Below are positions 46,112-58,006 of a stretch of DNA of 64,000 bases, one piece after another. Position 1 is the first letter of the stretch. Each line of letters opens with the position of its first letter. Origin of the DNA: Schizochytrium sp. TIO01 (Eukaryota; Protista; Bigyra: Labyrinthulomycetes); contig SMSO01000004.1 of NCBI GenBank assembly GCA_004764695.1, forward strand, positions 868,001 through 932,000. The letters run 5' to 3'. The notes under the pieces were generated by a model. The model did no database searches. It was not told where the DNA came from and worked only from the letters and a program-made list of their open reading frames with translations. A program made the position numbers and the translations under genes.

Positions 46112-49100
46112 TCAGTCTGTCCCTTCAAAAACAATGCAAACAGAACCCCTAAGAAGTACCCGAGCGGTTCCATAGTCTTGGGCGGGCCCTTGCGCAGAAA
46201 ATGGGTATGGTCCTGCTGTTTTGAAAGAGTCTGTATGTAAGATAAATGTTTGTTTCGCGTCACGATCGATTAAAGTCATTACGCCATAATTATCGTTGAC
46301 CCGCGCGACCTCACGCAAGTTTGGCCTAGGAAGCTTTATTTCATGAAGCAAGTCTAAATGCACAGCATCCAGAGCTTGAAGTAGATTATCTTCGGTAATT
46401 AAATATAACCTGTCTCCACTCTGTGCCATTGAGGTTATTAAATTGTCGAGATTTGCTGTGGAAACTACCGTGGCTGTCTTCACATCCCAACGTCGCAACG
46501 TTAGATCTCTCGAAGCGGTGTAGGCAAACTGACCGCATGTAGATAATGTAGCAGAAACACAGGACTTCGTATGCCCAAGAAATGAAAGCTCTCGCCTCCG
46601 CTCAGGATCTTCCACAATAAATTCATGTGAGTCATTCACTACACGAACTCCTTCAATATCGACCGCAAGATACTTAGAAGAAGCATCCATTCGCAACTCT
46701 GCAAGGCACATTCGATCCTTCCAAACTCGCACACGGCCGATTGAATCACCACTAGCCCAAATCTCTGTAGAGGCCTGGTTTGACAATGCAGAAATTGTTG
46801 CTCCAGGATGAGCTAATACTGGATGAACTTTTCCAAAATTCTGGCCTTGGAGAAAAAGTACTTGACCTTGTGCATCGCCTAGTAGACCAGGTGCAACACA
46901 GGTAATCTCAGCATCAAAAGCTTCTAGCTGTGCGCAACGAAGAGTGCCCTCGTGTACACCAAAAATCGGAAGATGCATGTTACTTGGGCATACACCTATA
47001 CATATGAACGAATACCGATCAACAAAAGTACAACCAGTTCGCCTGGAAGGTGCATCTTCATCCTGGACTCGCTTGCTCAAATCAGCCAACACCTGATGTT
47101 CTAGTTGCATCCCGCTCAGTGCACCGACAAATACAACCACCAAGCTCCCCTTTTCAACTACTTCCTCTTCTTGGGTATCTGATTCATTTATTTTACCATC
47201 TTCCTCCATGAGATGGTCCAATTTACGACCAACTATTGCAAGATCTCCGCGTACAGAGACGGCCATAGATTCAATTGCTAGAGTATTTTGAAGAGCGTGC
47301 GGTGGCCCACAAGGTTCTCCTGATACAGTATCAAATACTACCGCCAGACTTGGCTTCTGAGATACAATTGCAATTTTGGATGCATCAGAGCTAAAATTAC
47401 AGGCAACGATCGTACCTGGGCAAACGGTGCCGATGCATCGTTGTGAAAGGAGGTTCATGTCCATGCCTGTTGCACAGTCACCACCAACCCGAATAAGCTC
47501 GCCCCGTGCATTGAACTGACGGGGAACATTATGTGTAATTCCAAGAACAGCCTTTCGACCCTCTCGCCGTGCGTTTTCAACGAGGGAGGTTCCGAATGTT
47601 ATGGTTTCATCTAGCTTTAAATCCATAAACGAATGTTTAAGAACAGAGAGATGCACCTGAACCTCATCTACAGGCTCCGCTGTGATCCATGTTTTTTCTA
47701 ACCGCTCTTCAGGAATTGGGTTAGCAGAGACAGAGTCCGCGTAACATTCCCGCTTATTCTGGTCTAAAAGGCGAACAATCTCACAATCATCAGCAAATTG
47801 CACAGTATCAGGAGGCCACCTCCATTGAATGCCGCTTGGGGTTAGAGATTGGCGAACCTGAGCGTACCGTGAGTCGTAGAAACTCATGACTCCATCTGCA
47901 CGCGCGACGACGAAACGATATGAGTCTGAACCAGTCTTTGATGGGCTAAAGGCAAGACATTGAATACTACTGGGGGGACTTCCATCGCCACAACGCAAAC
48001 GCACGAGCTCATCTTCTAGCTTGCTTTCTATTGAACGAACAGATACTGATCCCATGTTTGTCCCAATTGCCAATACATCTCCATCATGAGAGAATGAGAC
48101 ACATGTGCAGACTGCATCGGGGCGATCATCCAGTCTTATTTCATTGATAAGCTGGAAGTCCGAGTCCCAGAGGCACACAGTTGTGTCCTGTTCTCCTATC
48201 GTTGCCCATAGATTATTTCTTCCGAAGCACACAACCCGCACCTTAGTATGGGCCGAAGCAACCTGCTCAGATTCCTTCAGAAGCTTCAATACACGGTGTC
48301 CATCGCCAACAAGACCACGTCGACAAATTGAGTCAATTCTTACCTTAAAATTGTCGAAGATATGCTTCAGATCACCTTGGGCAGACCAAACTCGAATCAC
48401 CGATTTTTCGCTAACTGACACAAAATCACGCAAAAGTTTCACGCCTACACCGTCATGTGCCTTCGCTTCAATCAGAATAAGCCTTGCCTCGTCTGAGTCT
48501 AAGCGCCACAATGATCCTTTCTGGTCTCCGCACCAGTCCCCCCAGATACAAGTAACTTTACAGCTGTGTTCGATGGCAACTCTTTCATACTCACGCCCAT
48601 GTGCATGGTGAATCCAGAGTAGACCAGTTTCCTTGTCAAGTTCTGCTAGGCTTACATTACAGGAACCGTGTGCTTTCAATGTGCTTATGGTACTTTTTTG
48701 AGCAATCAAAGGAAACCTAGCTAGTGGCGTAGGCCCATGCCTAAAATCTAACTCTTCATTAGAAAGCTGCGGTTTTTCAAGACGCCATGTTGTAGCCATG
48801 TTACGCGCACAAACTGCCGTAATAAGACCTGAAGGATTAATGTCAATTTGCGAAACACCTTCCAAACGAACAAAAAAACAAACTTTACAATCTGACCCGT
48901 CTTCGGAGATTTGCCATACCATTGCACGCATTGTATCACACGCAGCAAGCCACCATAGACCGGGGGCACTACAAGGGCAGGAGCGCAAGGAAACTACTTG
49001 TGCAAGCATTTGTAAGTACCTAACATGGTAATTGCGACTTTTTGCAAGTACAATCATATCGGATGCAGCATATGCTAAAAGTCCTTGACTACCTAGACTT

Positions 49101-51808
49101 GCGATTGAGTCTCCAGATGGGCCTTTACATCCTTGAACTGAACGCTTGTAAATAATTGGCCCCGGCTTTAAATGAGCATATTCTTGCGCAAGAGGCTCTT
49201 CGGTTTTGTCTTCATCATCCTCCATAAACTTGTCAAGCTCTTCGTCGGCAGATTTCTTACTTTGTCCTTCGCCACGTGTTCTGATAACATCCTTTTCATT
49301 CTTTATCACCTCGGGGTTTTTCTCTAGAAAATGGAGCTTGGGAGCCGCATCTTCAATTCTTAGAGCGCAGTCGTAAACTTTTTCGACCATTTGCATCAGT
49401 GGGTTGCTTTCCTCAAGTGTATAAAACCAGCCCAAAGATGGCAAGCTTTCCAGATATGGTACAGTTTCAGGATCGCCACCCATATCGCTCACTTCTGTCT
49501 GCTTTGGAAGTTTAATTCGACGGAGACCCTGCTTGTGAAATACAGATTTCTCCTGGACTGCAAAGACATGGTCATTTCCGAGATACAAATGCCATTTTGT
49601 CTCGCTTTTGCCGGCTTGTATAAAACGAGGATCAACAGAGTCTAAATTTGGGACACTCTCAGGAAGCCGGCAAAACTCTTCTCCATGTTTTAAATCATAA
49701 ATTCTGTCTTGAACGAAAAGGTAGCTTCCACATGGACTCAACTTTAGAGCCTGAACAGTAAAACCTGGCTCCGAGTATACATACTTCTCGGTCCAGGTTT
49801 TTGTAGCATCATTACGCTCAACCACAGAAAATCCATCTGCAAAGCCAATTGCGCAGACAATCACTCTCTGTGGCTGAGTCAGTTCTCGCGCAGTCAGGCA
49901 AAGAGGGATCCTTTCATCCAGCATGCAAGTGGATTCTAAAAACCCTAATTTTTTCATATCCCATAAACGTAGTGTCCAGTCTTGACCAACACTCACAAGC
50001 TTAGTGGTAGAGATCCAGTAATGCACTCTCATATCCAAATGACCACTAGAAACCCCCCCTTCACCTACAACGTGACCACTTACTCCGTGCACAAGGAACA
50101 CCTCACATGCGCGTGTTGTGATAGCAATTCGAGATCCGTCGAACGACCAGCACACCATTCGCGCACCTGTATCAAGCGAAGGTGCACGAGTCATCTCATC
50201 AAACTCTGCAATTAATTGAACGTTAAAACTCCAAAGTTTAAGATACCCGTTTTTGGATGAACTTGTCGTGAAGCCTCGCGTGCAGACATGTATCGCATGT
50301 AATGGTTCACCTTGGAAAGTTGCTTCTGACCTTGTGACACGGTAACCTTCCAATACATATAGAAGACCATCATTTCCTCCAAGAACAGCGAATTTCGATC
50401 TTGGATGATATGCACAACACAAGAAGTCTGTATCAGGCCGCACGCTGAAACCCACGCGCCGTTGCTCGTTGGCAGAAACATCGATTACTTCCGCCAACCC
50501 CGCAATTCCTCCAACAAGTATACGATCGTCCTCGATATAGCACACTGTTCGAATTGAGCCTGCAGGCAAAGTAAAAACACCCCGACGCTTACTTAATAAA
50601 AAATCTGCCTTTAGCTTACATGATTCTTTAGCTGCATGACCCCGCTCCAAGTCATCTTGTTCCTGCTCAGATTCGCTTTCCAAACTACTACTATCCTCGC
50701 TGTCAGATTTTGACGACTCATCAATACTACTGGCGATTGACCCATCATCGTTCAAATGTGAAAATAGCGGACTTGCTGAACTCCCTTCAGCGAAAATAAA
50801 TACTTGGACATTTCCGTATTTGTCTGCCACGCAAAGCTCAAGCGTGCCAAGTGCCCAGCATAAGGCCACAACCTCGCGAACCGCAATAGTTGCAAGAGGA
50901 TGGATCTGTGGGTAACCCCAAATGACAATTTTCTGCGCACAAGCTGTTGCAATTAAGTTGTGCTCCCAGCTATAAGCTGACGTGAAGATATCTTTTTCAT
51001 GGCACCAGCCTATCCGGTTTTCCTCGCGGCCTTGTCTTTGCGTTGCTTGGACCGAGCTTGAGATAAGCAAGGGCCCCATGGTTCGAACCAGTCGTCCATC
51101 CATCATGAAAAAAGCGTTGGTTGCTCCGCAAGCGCTCTTAACTTTTCCAAGTGTCAATTCTGATCTTTCCATAGAAGGTTGTGCCCAAAGAGGGCGTGTT
51201 GAACAAAATGGCATTGCTTCTCCTCCATGATCTATGAGACCGTCAAACAGCTGAAGCCAGGAGCGCACTCGTAAACACGTATTGTTAATAAAAGCTTTCC
51301 GTGAAAGACGATCATGCGGTGTTGCTCCAAATAAAATATCCACTACAAGTTCTAGCTCAGCAGTGTTTGGCAGTGTAAAACGGCCTCCCCCAAAGCGATC
51401 AATACCAGCACTGCAAGTATCGAGGAGCAAAAATGTCTCGTCGAATGTAAGAGATCCCCGTTTTCGAAAGTCGAATACATCGAAGAGCGCTGCTAAGCGT
51501 GCCTTCCGACTGGTTGCACTAAAGCAGCATGCAGCACCTACTAGCTGTAGGCTGTCGATTCCCATGATACTCTCGGAGCTTACAGCAGGGCAATTCGGCC
51601 CGCATGCCTCCTTTACGCCAAGCAAACGCAAGCAATCTGCAGGGTCCAGCTGAAAGTCAAGATTTCGATGCCTTTCTACCAAGCTCCACATCTCTTTGGT
51701 GCTTAGACCAACCATACAAGCGCATGCACACTGAGCATTGTTTGACACTTCAGGGTTGTCTGAAGTTAATGCTGCATCGCTCTGCTCCCTGCCTTGCACC
51801 AAGCCCAT
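46112..51808 (-). CDS. Large EF-hand + multi-WD40 (EML/TAPE-like) protein
   Basis: MG start; EF-hand LFDVFDFRKRGSLTFDE; many WD-like units (GQDWTLRLWD, DTTVCLWD, GHTKSC..ASRDLTLRRWD) spread over ~1600 aa with acidic linkers. Confidence 0.8.
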   Translation of the reverse strand: MGLVQGREQSDAALTSDNPEVSNNAQCACACMVGLSTKEMWSLVERHRNLDFQLDPADCLRLLGVKEACGPNCPAVSSESIMGIDSLQLVGAACCFSATSRKARLAALFDVFDFRKRGSLTFDETFLLLDTCSAGIDRFGGGRFTLPNTAELELVVDILFGATPHDRLSRKAFINNTCLRVRSWLQLFDGLIDHGGEAMPFCSTRPLWAQPSMERSELTLGKVKSACGATNAFFMMDGRLVRTMGPLLISSSVQATQRQGREENRIGWCHEKDIFTSAYSWEHNLIATACAQKIVIWGYPQIHPLATIAVREVVALCWALGTLELCVADKYGNVQVFIFAEGSSASPLFSHLNDDGSIASSIDESSKSDSEDSSSLESESEQEQDDLERGHAAKESCKLKADFLLSKRRGVFTLPAGSIRTVCYIEDDRILVGGIAGLAEVIDVSANEQRRVGFSVRPDTDFLCCAYHPRSKFAVLGGNDGLLYVLEGYRVTRSEATFQGEPLHAIHVCTRGFTTSSSKNGYLKLWSFNVQLIAEFDEMTRAPSLDTGARMVCWSFDGSRIAITTRACEVFLVHGVSGHVVGEGGVSSGHLDMRVHYWISTTKLVSVGQDWTLRLWDMKKLGFLESTCMLDERIPLCLTARELTQPQRVIVCAIGFADGFSVVERNDATKTWTEKYVYSEPGFTVQALKLSPCGSYLFVQDRIYDLKHGEEFCRLPESVPNLDSVDPRFIQAGKSETKWHLYLGNDHVFAVQEKSVFHKQGLRRIKLPKQTEVSDMGGDPETVPYLESLPSLGWFYTLEESNPLMQMVEKVYDCALRIEDAAPKLHFLEKNPEVIKNEKDVIRTRGEGQSKKSADEELDKFMEDDEDKTEEPLAQEYAHLKPGPIIYKRSVQGCKGPSGDSIASLGSQGLLAYAASDMIVLAKSRNYHVRYLQMLAQVVSLRSCPCSAPGLWWLAACDTMRAMVWQISEDGSDCKVCFFVRLEGVSQIDINPSGLITAVCARNMATTWRLEKPQLSNEELDFRHGPTPLARFPLIAQKSTISTLKAHGSCNVSLAELDKETGLLWIHHAHGREYERVAIEHSCKVTCIWGDWCGDQKGSLWRLDSDEARLILIEAKAHDGVGVKLLRDFVSVSEKSVIRVWSAQGDLKHIFDNFKVRIDSICRRGLVGDGHRVLKLLKESEQVASAHTKVRVVCFGRNNLWATIGEQDTTVCLWDSDFQLINEIRLDDRPDAVCTCVSFSHDGDVLAIGTNMGSVSVRSIESKLEDELVRLRCGDGSPPSSIQCLAFSPSKTGSDSYRFVVARADGVMSFYDSRYAQVRQSLTPSGIQWRWPPDTVQFADDCEIVRLLDQNKRECYADSVSANPIPEERLEKTWITAEPVDEVQVHLSVLKHSFMDLKLDETITFGTSLVENARREGRKAVLGITHNVPRQFNARGELIRVGGDCATGMDMNLLSQRCIGTVCPGTIVACNFSSDASKIAIVSQKPSLAVVFDTVSGEPCGPPHALQNTLAIESMAVSVRGDLAIVGRKLDHLMEEDGKINESDTQEEEVVEKGSLVVVFVGALSGMQLEHQVLADLSKRVQDEDAPSRRTGCTFVDRYSFICIGVCPSNMHLPIFGVHEGTLRCAQLEAFDAEITCVAPGLLGDAQGQVLFLQGQNFGKVHPVLAHPGATISALSNQASTEIWASGDSIGRVRVWKDRMCLAELRMDASSKYLAVDIEGVRVVNDSHEFIVEDPERRRELSFLGHTKSCVSATLSTCGQFAYTASRDLTLRRWDVKTATVVSTANLDNLITSMAQSGDRLYLITEDNLLQALDAVHLDLLHEIKLPRPNLREVARVNDNYGVMTLIDRDAKQTFILHTDSFKTAGPYPFSAQGPAQDYGTARVLLRGSVCIVFEGTD

Positions 51809-53046: not shown

Positions 53047-55875
53047 ATGGCTGCAGCAGCTGCGATTGCTGCAGCGCAGCGGAACACCCGAAGGAAAGCT
53101 AAAGAAGCAGATAAAGAAGCACGTCGAAACGCGCGCCGGATCAAGAAGGAGCGCAATGGTATAAGTGAAGGACTTAGTGTGGAGAGCAAACAGATTGTAG
53201 GTTATGCCAAGGAAAATGTGAATCAAGATCCTATGGCACAACTCTCAAGCACAGATTCAGAGGATTCTTCAACCTCTACACCTAGTAAACTTGCTCTCAG
53301 GGGGCCGTACGGTCGTCTTGCACATTTCTGCAAAACCCTGTCTCATGCCGATAGCTTCAATGGCTTCATTATTTTTGTTATCCTCATTGCCGGTGTTCTT
53401 GTTGGATTACAGAGCTACCCCGCCATGGAGCAGAATACTGCGGTTTCTATTATTGATAAATGCGTACTAATCACGTTCTGCGCTGAGTGTGTCATTAAAA
53501 TCATTGCAGAGTATAGCAGACCATGGCGATATTTCACTGGAAGCGAGTGGAAATGGAATGTGTTTGACTTTACCATAGTGTTCATGTCTCTCCCTATCTT
53601 TAATTGGGGTTCATCTATTGCTCTTTTACGACTCGTTCGTCTAATGCGTCTTATAAAGCTGGTCAAGCGAATCCCGCAGCTCTACATGATTGTAATGGGT
53701 CTCATGGGTGGTATGCGCGCGATCATGTACATTCTGGTTTTGCTATTGCTCATTTTTTACATGTATAGTGTTGTTGGATTTTATTTGTTTGCTGAGAATG
53801 ACCCCTTTCAGTTTGGTGACATTTGGAAAGCAATGGTTACCTTGTGGCGGGTCTCAACTTTTGAAGACTGGACTGATGTTTTGTACACCAACTACTACTC
53901 ATGCGCTGTATATCCCGGAAATATATATATCGACGAGGTTTCTCTCGATCCCGAGAGCTATGGCAGAGCAGGGGAGCTTTGGGCGTGCACTAATCCCGAG
54001 GCACAGGAGTTACTGTCCGTACTATATTTTATCAGTTTTGTGTTTGTGTCTTCCCTTGTTATGCTCAGTCTCTTTGTCGGTGCTGTAACTATGAGCATGA
54101 CAGAGAGCATGGAAGAGTTGAACGAAGAAAAGGAAGCTGTTCGCCGTGAGCAGGCTCTTGCAAAGGCTCGGGAGCGTGCACTTTTAAGATCTGGTACTGA
54201 TACATCATTGAATAAAAGTAATAGCGAGGATTCCCCACAGCGCATTGCTTCAGATGTATTCACACTAACTAAAAGGGTTTCCATGCTCATAAAGGCAGCA
54301 TCCCGAAGTTCTCTGACTAAAATTACACCCTTAGTAAACCAAAATTCTTTGGACGAGAATGTTTTGGTCAGTGAAACACCGATAAAACAAAATACTGAAC
54401 CTTCAATTCATTCTTCATCGAAACTTTCTGCTGAAAAATATCTTACGGCTTCTGGAAAAGTGAAGCCCATGGGTTCCTCTGCACAACTGCAGAGAGCTCC
54501 TACTATGTTATCACGGATGTTCAGTGCTAACATGTCACAAACAGAGACAGATCTCTTTGACGATGCAGAGATTCACCACTTGCGTTCGTTAATTCTTCGT
54601 GCTACAGGAATCGAAGATATCAAAAGGAAGAGTAAAAATGTTGAGGACGAGGCGCCAGCACATGGTGCTATAATCACTGCATACATTTCACTTGCTGCAC
54701 GCTGTGAAAAGGTTGTACAAAGTTCGTATTTTGTAAACTTTATTACGTTTATTATCGTATGTGCAGGCATCCAAATTGGTGTGTCAACTTTCCCACAAAC
54801 AACCCAAGCACAGAAACTTCTCAAAGTTACAGATGGTATTATTTTAGGAATTTTCGCTCTTGAAATTCTTCTTAAAACTATCGCTGCTGGTCTAAAACCC
54901 TGGCACTTTTTCTATTTTAGAGGTGCAAATGGGTGGAATATATTCGACTACATCGTGGTTGTGGGCAGTCTGATACCCGGTTCAGGGAGCACGCTGACTA
55001 TTCTGCGGCTCTTGAGGCTTCTCCGTGTGTTAAAGCTGCTGAGAGCATTGCCCGAATTGCAGATTATCGTGGTGGCACTAATCAACGGTATTGGTTCCAT
55101 CAGCTATATTGCTCTTATTTTGTTTATGGTGTTTTACATTTTCGCTATCGCAGGTCAAATTCTCTTTGCAGAAAATGATCCTTTACATTTTGGATCGCTT
55201 CATATCGCACTAATAACTTTGTTCCGAAGTGCAACCCTGGAGGACTGGTCTGATCTTGCATATATTTCAATGTACGGATGTAATCAGTTTGGATACAATG
55301 GCTTTGAGGCGCTTTGCGAATCTCCAAAAGCATTGGGTGCAGTCGCTGCTCTATATTACATTCTTTTTACACTTATCGGAGGTCTAGTTCTCATGACGCT
55401 GTTTATCGGTGTGGTAACCATGAGTATGGAGGAGGCCTCCCAAGATCAAAAGGACCATGATGCTGTCATGGACAGAGCTCAGAGGATTTGTGAGGCTTCC
55501 AACATTCCTAAAGAGATTTTCTTATTGTATGAGGAAATCTTCAATACAATCGATTATGATGGAGGAGGATCGATTGATGAGGAAGAGCTAGCGATTGGTT
55601 TTATTGCAATTGGTGATGTCTTCTCTAAAGCAGAAATTCGAGAAATGGTTGCTCGAGTGGACGATGACAACAGTGGAGAACTTGACCTCGCGGAGTTCAT
55701 TGAATTCATGACTGTTTTCAAAGAAGAGTTCCTTCAGCGTACAGATGGGACTGGAGACATTCGCTTGGCGCGAAATTTTCAGAAGAGGTCACAAGACGCT
55801 GTTAACATCACCGCATCAGAAACATCTGTTATTTCAATAGAGAATATGGAAGAAGCAGAAGGCACTGAGCTTTGA
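53047..55875 (+). CDS. Two-repeat (2x6TM) voltage-gated cation channel with two C-terminal EF-hands
   Basis: Two ion_trans repeats: WNVFDF and WNIFDY; S4 LRLVRLMRLIKLVK and LRLLRLLRVLKLLR; filters TFEDW (53857-53871) and TLEDW (55234-55248). EF loops DYDGGGSIDEEE and DDDNSGELDLAE. First ATG at 53047. Confidence 0.93.
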   Translation: MAAAAAIAAAQRNTRRKAKEADKEARRNARRIKKERNGISEGLSVESKQIVGYAKENVNQDPMAQLSSTDSEDSSTSTPSKLALRGPYGRLAHFCKTLSHADSFNGFIIFVILIAGVLVGLQSYPAMEQNTAVSIIDKCVLITFCAECVIKIIAEYSRPWRYFTGSEWKWNVFDFTIVFMSLPIFNWGSSIALLRLVRLMRLIKLVKRIPQLYMIVMGLMGGMRAIMYILVLLLLIFYMYSVVGFYLFAENDPFQFGDIWKAMVTLWRVSTFEDWTDVLYTNYYSCAVYPGNIYIDEVSLDPESYGRAGELWACTNPEAQELLSVLYFISFVFVSSLVMLSLFVGAVTMSMTESMEELNEEKEAVRREQALAKARERALLRSGTDTSLNKSNSEDSPQRIASDVFTLTKRVSMLIKAASRSSLTKITPLVNQNSLDENVLVSETPIKQNTEPSIHSSSKLSAEKYLTASGKVKPMGSSAQLQRAPTMLSRMFSANMSQTETDLFDDAEIHHLRSLILRATGIEDIKRKSKNVEDEAPAHGAIITAYISLAARCEKVVQSSYFVNFITFIIVCAGIQIGVSTFPQTTQAQKLLKVTDGIILGIFALEILLKTIAAGLKPWHFFYFRGANGWNIFDYIVVVGSLIPGSGSTLTILRLLRLLRVLKLLRALPELQIIVVALINGIGSISYIALILFMVFYIFAIAGQILFAENDPLHFGSLHIALITLFRSATLEDWSDLAYISMYGCNQFGYNGFEALCESPKALGAVAALYYILFTLIGGLVLMTLFIGVVTMSMEEASQDQKDHDAVMDRAQRICEASNIPKEIFLLYEEIFNTIDYDGGGSIDEEELAIGFIAIGDVFSKAEIREMVARVDDDNSGELDLAEFIEFMTVFKEEFLQRTDGTGDIRLARNFQKRSQDAVNITASETSVISIENMEEAEGTEL

Positions 55876-56340: not shown

Positions 56341-58006
56341 CTAATCTGTCATTTCGGTGCCATCTGCATTCTCATCAGGCTCTTCTTCCAGCTCGATCCT
56401 AGAAAATTGGGCAGACTTTGTAGCCGGAGAGTAGAACACAAATGATGCATCAAGTGCGAAAGACCCAGGGTTGAGGATGGTAGATCCATCATGTTTGGTG
56501 ATTGTTTGTGCAGAAGTCTCTGCAACAACTAGTGTAGTAGGTTGGGGATAGAGGCGAAGAGCATGATCCCACGCGTGATGGATTGGCCTTGCGTGTACCG
56601 GTAGAGGACACAAGTGGGATTGCTGCAAATAAGTCCGTGCCTGATGCTCTGCCATGCTCCACTTAGACTCGTCTGGTTCGCACACGCAGAACCGACGCAT
56701 TTTACGAAGCATCTCCTCACGAAAGAGCACGACTTCCTGGGTCAAGTATTTGATTCGACAAGGGTTCGTTGGAAAACTTGAACTTTGCATTTGGCACAAC
56801 TGATTGAATCATTTGCTCGAGGTCTCGTGTAAAGAATTTTGGAAGTGCGTGTTGAGGTAAATTTCCTGCGTTCGCAACTGGATCACGCGGCCCGGGCATG
56901 ATCACAAATGTAGAGCTTTCCAACAAACGTGGTACCTCAACAAGAAGATCTCCTAGCTTTGTCATAAGGCTTTTGTACTCCTTAGCGCTACACTGACCAT
57001 CTCCTTCGCCGAACGGAAGAGAGCAAAAGTTGCCCATGAAAGCAAACAAAAGGGGTGCTTCGTCCAAATCTTCGTAAGCTTGTAGCATCCGACGAAGGCT
57101 AGCGACAACCGTGGGGTTGTCGAGGTGAATTTCAGAGACTATGACAAAGGCCGCTTCCTCGTGGGCAGCCTCAAGTTTTCGCATATTCTCTATCGTGCTT
57201 TCTGGTAAAGGGTCGCCACCTCGTACAAAGTCAAGGTTTCCATGAGCTGCAAGTGAATCAGCGCGATCTTCTACGGGAGGTGCCATGATACTTTCTGCCA
57301 CTAGAACGCCTTCTGAAAGTTCGCCCTCTACCAGAACAATGGAGCCTTCCATAATGAGGCCAGGGCCGACACGTGCATTCTTCAAGTCTAGTTCAACTTT
57401 GCCATTCAGGTCTTCAAGGCACAACTTTCCATCACTAGATCGGGTGATCATACCAAGAACGCAACTGTTAGAGATGCCAGAGGCAGCCAAACTTTCGATT
57501 TGCGTGAGCTGGATATAAACACCATCGTTGGACCCAGCCCTCACCCGGCGTCTTGAGGGATCAAGTGAAGTCGCCCCGACGACAGGCGGCGCAAATGCAG
57601 GGTTTCGGAGCACACGTTGCTTGATGAGGGTCAATCTATCACGGAGTGCATCGATACGACCCTTAGCGTTAAGTTCCACTGGCGCTTCGTAAAAGACTCG
57701 TCTCGTCATATTCCAGTGAAATGCAGGCATGTCAAATGCGCTAATTACCTCTAGATTCGCTTGCTCCATCTCCGCGTCTTCTTGCGAGAGATCTCGCACC
57801 ACCTCGCGCACAACATCTCTATTCACTGGCTGTCCAGCTTTCGTACGCGCCTTGATAGCGTCCATAATAATCCTCAGCGAGTCAAGGGCATTTTCTTCTC
57901 TTCGCAAAACTGACTCAAGCGCATGTACCGCTTCCGGTCTCACGCTCAACCCGCTTAGTCGAAACTCCTTCTGGATGGACCTCTTTAACTTGAGGTCACT
58001 CGACAT
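56341..58006 (-). CDS. POLE2: DNA polymerase epsilon subunit B (POLE2/DPB2), split by a +1 frame break near 56770
   Basis: VISAFDMP, LCLEDL, IVLVEG, SEIHLD, FMGNF and PGPRDP in the first frame; NPCRIKYLTQEVVLFREEMLRKMRR, QSHLCPLP, WDHALRLYPQP and NPGSF in the +1 frame. Confidence 0.93.

Follow-up and report, generated by a model that had tools for sequence, protein, structure and literature searches.

The 64-kb window of Schizochytrium sp. TIO01 analyzed here (the whole stretch of 64,000 nucleotides of contig SMSO01000004.1) encodes a predicted two-repeat voltage-gated cation channel subunit with a pair of EF-hands at its C-terminus. We propose, with a probability of about 0.62, that this channel descends from a bacterial-type single-domain channel which long ago underwent a tandem duplication of its own, and that its two-repeat subunits would form a dimer conducting mainly Na+ and some Ca2+ under feedback by the EF-hands. 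In the wider frame it is quite probable that the series from one to two to four domains happened twice, once in the line of two-pore channels (TPC) and four-domain Ca2+ and Na+ channels (Cav/Nav) and once in a line of AnclNav-type channels, which doubled early in stramenopile-type protists, gained an EF-hand lobe and later converged on the Cav/Nav layout with four repeats. All three stages of this second series would still be alive.

The gene is one unbroken frame of 942 amino acids (aa), in which Pfam recognizes two Ion_trans domains (E 9e-82) and the EF-hand pair. By sequence, with S1-S6, a charged S4 and a P-loop filter, the protein is a member of the six-transmembrane (6TM) voltage-gated cation channel superfamily. 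Of 7991 proteins scored in a length-matched search, 258 matched at E ≤ 1e-30, with names and alignments from the best 120. From these, 69 sequences were picked by hand for an alignment, in which the window protein replaces its near-copy, and an AlphaFold2 model built on it (mean predicted local distance difference test score, pLDDT, 78; predicted template modelling score, pTM, 0.71) has two confident 6TM units, with the EF lobe folded and following S6-II immediately. The features of the gene are:

53047..55875, + strand: predicted gene of a two-repeat voltage-gated cation channel subunit with C-terminal EF-hand pair, single exon, 942 aa
53332..54108, + strand: 6TM repeat I (aa 96-354), from the profile match and AlphaFold2 helices
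53629..53658, + strand: S4-I gating charges R195, R198, R201 and K204, kept in 69, 68, 69 and 69 of 69 aligned relatives
53857..53877, + strand: selectivity filter I, TFEDWTD (aa 271-277), then the Cys-containing P2-S6 loop (C286, C314), with C286 in 69/69
54109..54708, + strand: I-II linker (aa 355-554) with helical S6 extension and disordered Ser/Thr-rich middle, without an EF-hand, from pLDDT and DSSP
54562..54621, + strand: family-conserved linker helix (aa ~506-525), with A519 in 50/69, W at 520 in 43/69, G at 522 in 44/69 and D524 in 41/69; helix 506-519 in the model
54709..55437, + strand: 6TM repeat II (aa 555-797), from Pfam, profile match and AlphaFold2 model
55006..55035, + strand: S4-II gating charges R654, R657, R660 and K663, each in 69/69
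55234..55254, + strand: selectivity filter II, TLEDWSD (aa 730-736), then a Cys loop (C745, C757) common to bacterial relatives, from sequence and alignment
55531..55713, + strand: EF-hand pair (aa 829-889; loops 836-847 and 872-883) directly behind S6-II, Pfam PF13499, E 1.8e-9

An earlier interpretation made from the letters of the window, here called the sequence-only reading, had quoted both filter motifs, which are indeed present (TFEDWTD at 271, TLEDWSD at 730), and had described both S4 segments as fully charged, which agrees with the R-R-R-K pattern found in each and kept across the 69 relatives. In this alignment the four S4 charges per repeat, the filter Thr and Trp in both repeats and the loop cysteines show little or no variation, and both repeats have TLEDWTD as their consensus filter. 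Other parts of that reading need refinement. The two 6TM repeats exist, but the close similarity ascribed to them does not mean a recent origin: they are only 37% identical over 254 columns, and a recent lineage-specific duplication, with repeats I and II of the window protein as sisters, was rejected by the approximately unbiased (AU) test (p 9e-5). The linker has the claimed length of ~200 aa, but instead of being of low complexity throughout it has disorder confined to the middle part (pLDDT < 50 at 389-412, 416-490 and 493-501), which is flanked by the S6 helical extension and the conserved helix at ~506-525. Likewise the EF-hand pair is C-terminal and its loop 2 (872-883) is canonical, but in loop 1 (836-847) position 5 is Gly, as it is in 42/69 aligned relatives. 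A complex prediction for the EF lobe (796-902), the linker helix (497-540) and two Ca ions was uninformative, with a score of 0.03.

Among shorter proteins the best complete single-domain matches are bacterial, with 42-49% identity, and 109 of the 120 short matches listed carry the filter TLEDWTD. The genomes named among the best 80 of at least 592 matches belong to Bacteroidota, Myxococcota, Verrucomicrobiota, Planctomycetota and others; one of these relatives, at 46%, is from Enhygromyxa salina, a member of the same taxonomic family as Plesiocystis pacifica. As outgroups we used Cav/Nav proteins from the longer-protein search, six plasmid BacNavs, and TPCs represented by 18 of 32 long open reading frames (ORFs) from 117 loci of a metagenome motif scan. 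Over 227 trimmed columns, repeats I and II of the window protein share on average 41 and 45% (maximum 46 and 50%) identity with the bacterial TLEDWTD group and 28 and 35% (maximum 37 and 38%) with the plasmid BacNavs; the means are 24-29% (maximum 33%) with Cav/Nav domains and 19-21% (maximum 24%) with TPC domains. The Cys loop behind the filter is distributed in a similar way. It was found in 407/436 domains of the two-repeat family (200/220 for repeat I, 207/216 for repeat II), in 27/27 four-repeat domains and in 49/89 bacterial matches, and in none of 89 outgroup domains (0/5 plasmid BacNavs, 0/48 Cav/Nav, 0/36 TPC). Of the named bacterial loci 40/80 have it, none of them, by regular expression, in Verrucomicrobiota or Planctomycetota.

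On the basis of the TLEDWTD-type filter and the grouping with bacterial TLEDWTD channels, we assign the family unit by sequence to the AnclNav type, which includes NavPp of Plesiocystis pacifica and CavMr (Shimomura et al. 2020, PMC7041947). The assignment of the bacterial relatives themselves to AnclNav is judged from filter and taxonomy, and not from a comparison with the NavPp sequence. The family has the TLEDWTD consensus in both repeats and shares with the bacterial TLEDWTD channels an NDP and Cys-loop signature and up to 46-50% identity. It differs from them in being eukaryotic, with two or four repeats per chain where the bacterial unit is a single-domain homotetramer, and in the EF-hand pair that takes the place of the short C-terminal helical tail of the bacterial relatives. 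The BacNav likeness seen in the sequence-only reading is thus borne out. The EukCat likeness is not, since the best single-domain matches are bacterial TLEDWTD channels and the signature was not found in the published EukCat/CatSper set by text search. EukCatA-C and CatSper (Helliwell et al. 2019, PMC6509283) are also BacNav-like 6TM units found in protists including stramenopiles, but they are single-domain chains and not two fused repeats. The NDP/Cys-loop signature is absent from two EukCatA sequences compared from the supplement of PMC6509283, and a motif text search of its tree set, in which cells may be cut, matched only a Halomonas protein.

Trees were calculated on hand-picked rows of 682 repeats (FastTree with 161; IQ-TREE with 94 under C20, quick, 57 under LG+G4 and 47 under C20, careful), and FastTree and the three IQ-TREE runs agree on the overall picture. 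All family repeats form one clade (support 98/99 and 100/99), and the family together with the bacteria is split from TPC/Cav/Nav (100/99). The best trees all place the family inside the bacterial TLEDWTD channels (starred branches under C20), with no single bacterial phylum as supported sister. On these sequences the first duplication is single and old, because repeat I forms a family-wide clade (100/99). It is also likely independent of the duplications in TPC/Cav/Nav, as the sequence-only reading had supposed: AU tests reject a first duplication common to Cav/Nav/TPC (odd repeats p 0.0026 under LG and 2e-13 under C20; even repeats 0.0024). The grouping of odd repeats with TPC-I (p 0.015 under LG, 0.0012 under C20) and of the family with TPC (p 0.0029) was rejected as well. 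The per-repeat phylogeny that had been recommended as a check, run here against bacterial channels, plasmid BacNavs, TPC and Cav/Nav domains, therefore groups the repeats with bacteria and not with TPC domains I and II.

The longer-protein search revealed a further stage. Four four-repeat proteins scored 553-722 bits, a long-tailed two-repeat member 398 and Cav/Nav proteins at most 215. In a pool of 253 family proteins (the 120 matches listed, the top five longer proteins and 128 further proteins), 224 have two repeats, 19 one, three have three and seven have four. The seven are P0031, P0242-P0245, P0364 and P0367, with P0242-P0245 complete, and P0022 and P0387 are truncated forms. Their sources are gene models of EukProt, contigs of JGI or ENA, or unlabelled library representatives, and they were compared as protein sequences. 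The P0364 cluster speaks against a one-off assembly error, as its three long members lie on separate contigs (5154, 24146 and 9294 bases). Each four-repeat position is a clade of its own, and I and III pair inside the repeat-I clade (100/95; 99/93). With an EF-lobe profile, relics were found behind repeats II and/or IV and never behind I or III, as would be expected if the whole gene had been duplicated in tandem. We propose that the whole two-repeat gene was duplicated once more in another lineage, which would have led to four-repeat channels copying the Cav/Nav layout. The suggestion that the channel is a living analogue of the intermediate on the way to four domains was, if anything, understated, for four-repeat descendants of the family exist.

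With four-domain Cav, Nav and NALCN channels these relatives share the pattern in which I resembles III and II resembles IV, and the family as a whole shares the acidic filter ring. They differ in several respects. Identity to the four-domain channels is 24-33%, and the window protein has two repeats, not four. The III-IV linkers of the four-repeat forms exceed 100 aa (104-151 aa in six forms, 430 in P0367, versus 40-47 aa in 12 Cav/Nav proteins), and these forms carry EF relics after II or IV and the bacterial loop signature. Orthology of their first domain to Cav/Nav D1 was rejected (AU p 9e-58), as was an origin of the four-repeat forms directly and separately from the single unit (p 0.0027). 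In P0242-P0245, P0031 and P0364 filter position 2 of the even repeats is frequently Gly, Ala or Ser, like in Cav domains II and IV. Small residues at this position create divalent block in NavAb (PMC10349818), and a convergence with Cav is possible. P0244 also has a C-terminal PH domain.

In its subunit layout the channel is built like a TPC, yet it does not stem from the same duplication. The 17 best structural matches of the model by VIA are all TPCs (Z 23.0-27.3, root-mean-square deviation (rmsd) 3.5-10.2, 363-527 aligned residues, 15-18% identity), while a whole-model Foldseek search put Nav/Cav on top with poor rmsd and was uninformative. TPC1-3, plant TPC1 and diatom TPCL likewise have two 6TM repeats per chain and form dimers, as is predicted here, and plant TPC1 has EF-hands, too. 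However, identity is 15-24%, and shared duplication ancestry was rejected. The filters of TPCs are asymmetric and mostly non-acidic (VNN, MGN or VND in repeat II; outgroup TPCs and PMC11085791) in contrast to TFEDW/TLEDW here, and those of diatom TPC1 and TPCL are different from the family as well (PMC11085791). Plant and diatom TPC1 carry their EF-hands between the repeats (PMC11085791, PMC12839299) and not after repeat II, and only repeat II of TPCs senses voltage (PMC12839299), whereas both S4 segments are fully charged here. As judged from the sequence, the channel has the two-repeat layout of a TPC but differs from canonical TPCs in tree grouping, filters and EF-hand position, as the sequence-only reading had held.

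The channel could instead belong to the TPCR clade (Rahman et al. 2014), or otherwise to the TPC lineage, and would then already have a name. The citing papers (PMC4278181, PMC12839299, PMC8490419) describe TPCRs as protist two-domain channels with Cav-like acidic filters, and the comparison made here is with this description. Together with the two-repeat layout and the TPCs among the best structural matches this speaks for such a placement, as do the facts that oomycete BLAST counts for 'TPCN', 'CatSper' and 'VGCC' may include family members (PMC4820453) and that family names are known only for the best 120 of 258 matches. We nevertheless regard it as very unlikely. TPCRs are described as a TPC clade, and grouping with canonical TPCs was rejected at an identity of ~20%; their voltage sensors are reported as doubtful, whereas both S4 segments are invariant in the family; and they are reported from choanoflagellates and other protists, whereas no opisthokont or apusozoan is among the named top matches listed.

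A pore requires four pore domains, and therefore two channel subunits are predicted to pair, as in TPCs. In such a dimer, depolarization would move all four fully charged sensors and open the gate, and four Glu and four Asp would together form the filter ring. The sequence-only reading had concluded from the acidic filters, which are indeed present in both repeats, that the ring is probably Ca2+-permeable. That it implies a Ca2+ channel is doubtful, because NavPp with TLEDWTD, the only channel with this filter that has been measured, prefers Na+ (PCa/PNa 0.308, with Ca2+ block) and its TLEDWSD mutant is likewise Na+-preferring with similar Ca2+-blocked currents (PMC7041947). The determinant of Ca2+ selectivity in the NavPp/CavMr backbone is Gly at filter position 4 (PMC7041947), and both filters of the window protein have Asp there. 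Because NavPp with the same filter prefers Na+ and this Gly is absent, a mixed current with Na+ exceeding Ca2+ and with low-affinity Ca2+ block is slightly favored by the analogy to NavPp.

Entering Ca2+ would then bind the EF-hands, and the EF lobe, sitting on the S6-II extension, would be positioned to couple cytosolic Ca2+ to the gate; the Ca2+ feedback of the sequence-only reading is retained as an inference. That bound Ca2+ damps the channel rather than opens it appears somewhat more probable than the reverse, the sign being judged by analogy with Cav-calmodulin on the one side and plant TPC1 on the other.

With the same origin and architecture the channel could instead be Ca2+-selective, a compact Cav analogue with built-in calmodulin-like feedback. 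In NavAb, TLEDWSD makes the backbone selective for Ca2+, and CavMr demonstrates that such selectivity is possible with the AnclNav backbone, too (PMC7041947). Repeat I has Phe at filter position 2, which gave no Ca2+ block in NavAb (PMC10349818), and a conserved EF-hand pair is most sensible if Ca2+ enters: an EF motif lies right behind repeat II in 165/216 complete two-repeat proteins and within the linker in 2/216. We still consider Ca2+ selectivity unlikely due to the Na+ preference of NavPp, from the bacterial group inferred to be the closest kin, with either filter, and due to Asp instead of Gly at position 4.

Several points weigh against the reading of an independently duplicated, mainly Na+-conducting channel with EF-hand feedback. 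The trees were built without TPCR, EukCat, CatSper, NALCN, NaChBac, NavAb, NavPp and CavMr sequences, most AU test groups were named only after the first tree, and the TPC rows are long branches. The repeat-II types do not form one supported clade, and in the four-repeat forms II and IV pair with weaker support (94/76; 92/79). The strict EF motif is absent from 51/216 two-repeat proteins. Filters vary within the family, with ED in 97 and 94 of 216 (repeats I and II) and EN, DD, DN, DG and DA common as well, and CavMr, one or two filter residues off, is strongly Ca2+-selective, so that selectivity is not predictable from the filter alone. Finally, bacterial monophyly is not rejected by the AU tests (p 0.42 under LG, 0.30 under C20). 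The direction of transfer between bacteria and eukaryotes is for this reason unproven, and transfer from bacteria is the best tree of these sequences rather than a proven event.

Bacterial monophyly would also fit a unit inherited vertically from an early, slow-evolving eukaryotic single-domain channel, as would the lack of one bacterial phylum as supported sister. The duplications would still be independent of TPC/Cav/Nav in that case, and the question is orthogonal to function. Such an inheritance seems rather unlikely to us, because all best trees place the family among bacterial TLEDWTD channels, the Cys loop is common to only a bacterial subset and the named members are nearly all stramenopiles. 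A living single-repeat eukaryotic precursor was also sought. For all 26 one-repeat eukaryote-like matches the best score is that with repeat II, and the EF lobe or the linker motif is present in most of them, and we therefore treat them as fragments.

Named members of the family, almost all of them from stramenopiles, belong to thraustochytrids, oomycetes, Parmales and chrysophytes, among others. The hosts among the matches listed are Hondaea (two paralogues), Pythium, Phytophthora, Plasmopara, Nothophytophthora, Triparma, a bolidophyte, Paraphysomonas, Phaeomonas, a chrysophyte and Chattonella; the nearest named relative among them, with 68%, is from Hondaea fermentalgiana. In the ESM Atlas the protein lies nearest to an automatically named cluster of 161 eukaryotic members, most commonly Oomycota (score 0.98). 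Oomycete members (P0025, P0033, P0037, P0054 and others) have asymmetric filters, with EN in repeat I and DG in repeat II. By analogy selectivity may differ across the family, since Gly at position 4 of oomycete repeat II is the Ca2+-selectivity residue of CavMr.

Some members are unusual. P0007, an MMETSP transcript protein, has three repeats, the second of which joins a repeat-II start to a repeat-I-like pore loop and S6 end, while the third falls with a different paralogue; the protein seems to be chimeric between two paralogues, through assembly or unequal crossover. P0005, labelled Durusdinium trenchii in UniRef and located on a 21-kb contig, groups with thraustochytrid proteins at 64-67% identity per repeat and may be a co-assembled labyrinthulomycete sequence and not a dinoflagellate gene. 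With the family alignment, three IMG/VR contigs (L204-L206) with distant single-domain channel relatives (31-33% identity) were found; on viral contigs the TPC motif gave 0 matches and the four-repeat query none.

Since four-repeat relatives exist, the ORF might have been half of a spliced four-domain channel, a possibility already raised in the sequence-only reading, or an artefact of the gene model. Both are effectively refuted. A third or fourth repeat was not found in the 64-kb window: 80 repeat-II queries match only 53332-54108 and 54706-55437, with everything else at E > 0.1. Opposite-strand genes flank the gene ~1.2 kb upstream and less than 1 kb downstream, and the 224 two-repeat relatives include transcripts labelled complete. 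Contigs of eight public runs span the gene with no joint seen, and one contig, from a run that may be RNA, connects the end of repeat I with repeat II (53974-54836). In each of two different studies a contig ends near the same place (55949 and 55952), while DNA-like contigs extend further, a weak hint of the 3' end of the gene.

The neighbors, both on the minus strand, are unrelated to the channel. Divergent from it lies the gene of a WD40/EML-like beta-propeller protein (46112-51808, minus strand, 1898 aa) with an EF-hand-like N-terminal region. On the other side the gene of DNA polymerase epsilon subunit B (minus strand, ~58006 to 56341) is broken into two frames at 56769-56771. One base there is absent in all four runs compared with the window, and in view of this and the split frame an assembly error of one base in the window is probable.

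In the literature available we found neither a BacNav-like two-repeat family with EF-hands at the C-terminus described nor four-repeat channels of this kind, although subscription papers or supplements could mention members. The family motifs were not found in the supplement text of PMC5824947 and PMC11085791 or in 12 of 19 files of PMC7041947, where alignments given as pictures would escape. The family is thus apparently undescribed, with a small risk of an earlier mention. Its members are labelled Cav1 or Nav in databases, and the reviews consulted count only Cav, TPC, CatSper and EukCat types.

In the textbook account, four-domain Na+ and Ca2+ channels arose by duplication within the gene in two rounds, and the intermediate is represented today by TPCs alone. 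These are too diverged, with ~20% identity, non-acidic filters and one working sensor, to study the duplication steps directly. If our reading is true, the family described here is a replicate in which identity between the two-repeat form and bacterial single-domain channels still reaches 50%, and one-, two- and four-repeat members are still 35-50% alike per repeat, so that the breaking of symmetry in filters, sensors and linkers after duplication becomes testable. The known channels of thraustochytrids, oomycetes and several algal lines would also be joined by one with a probable role in excitability.

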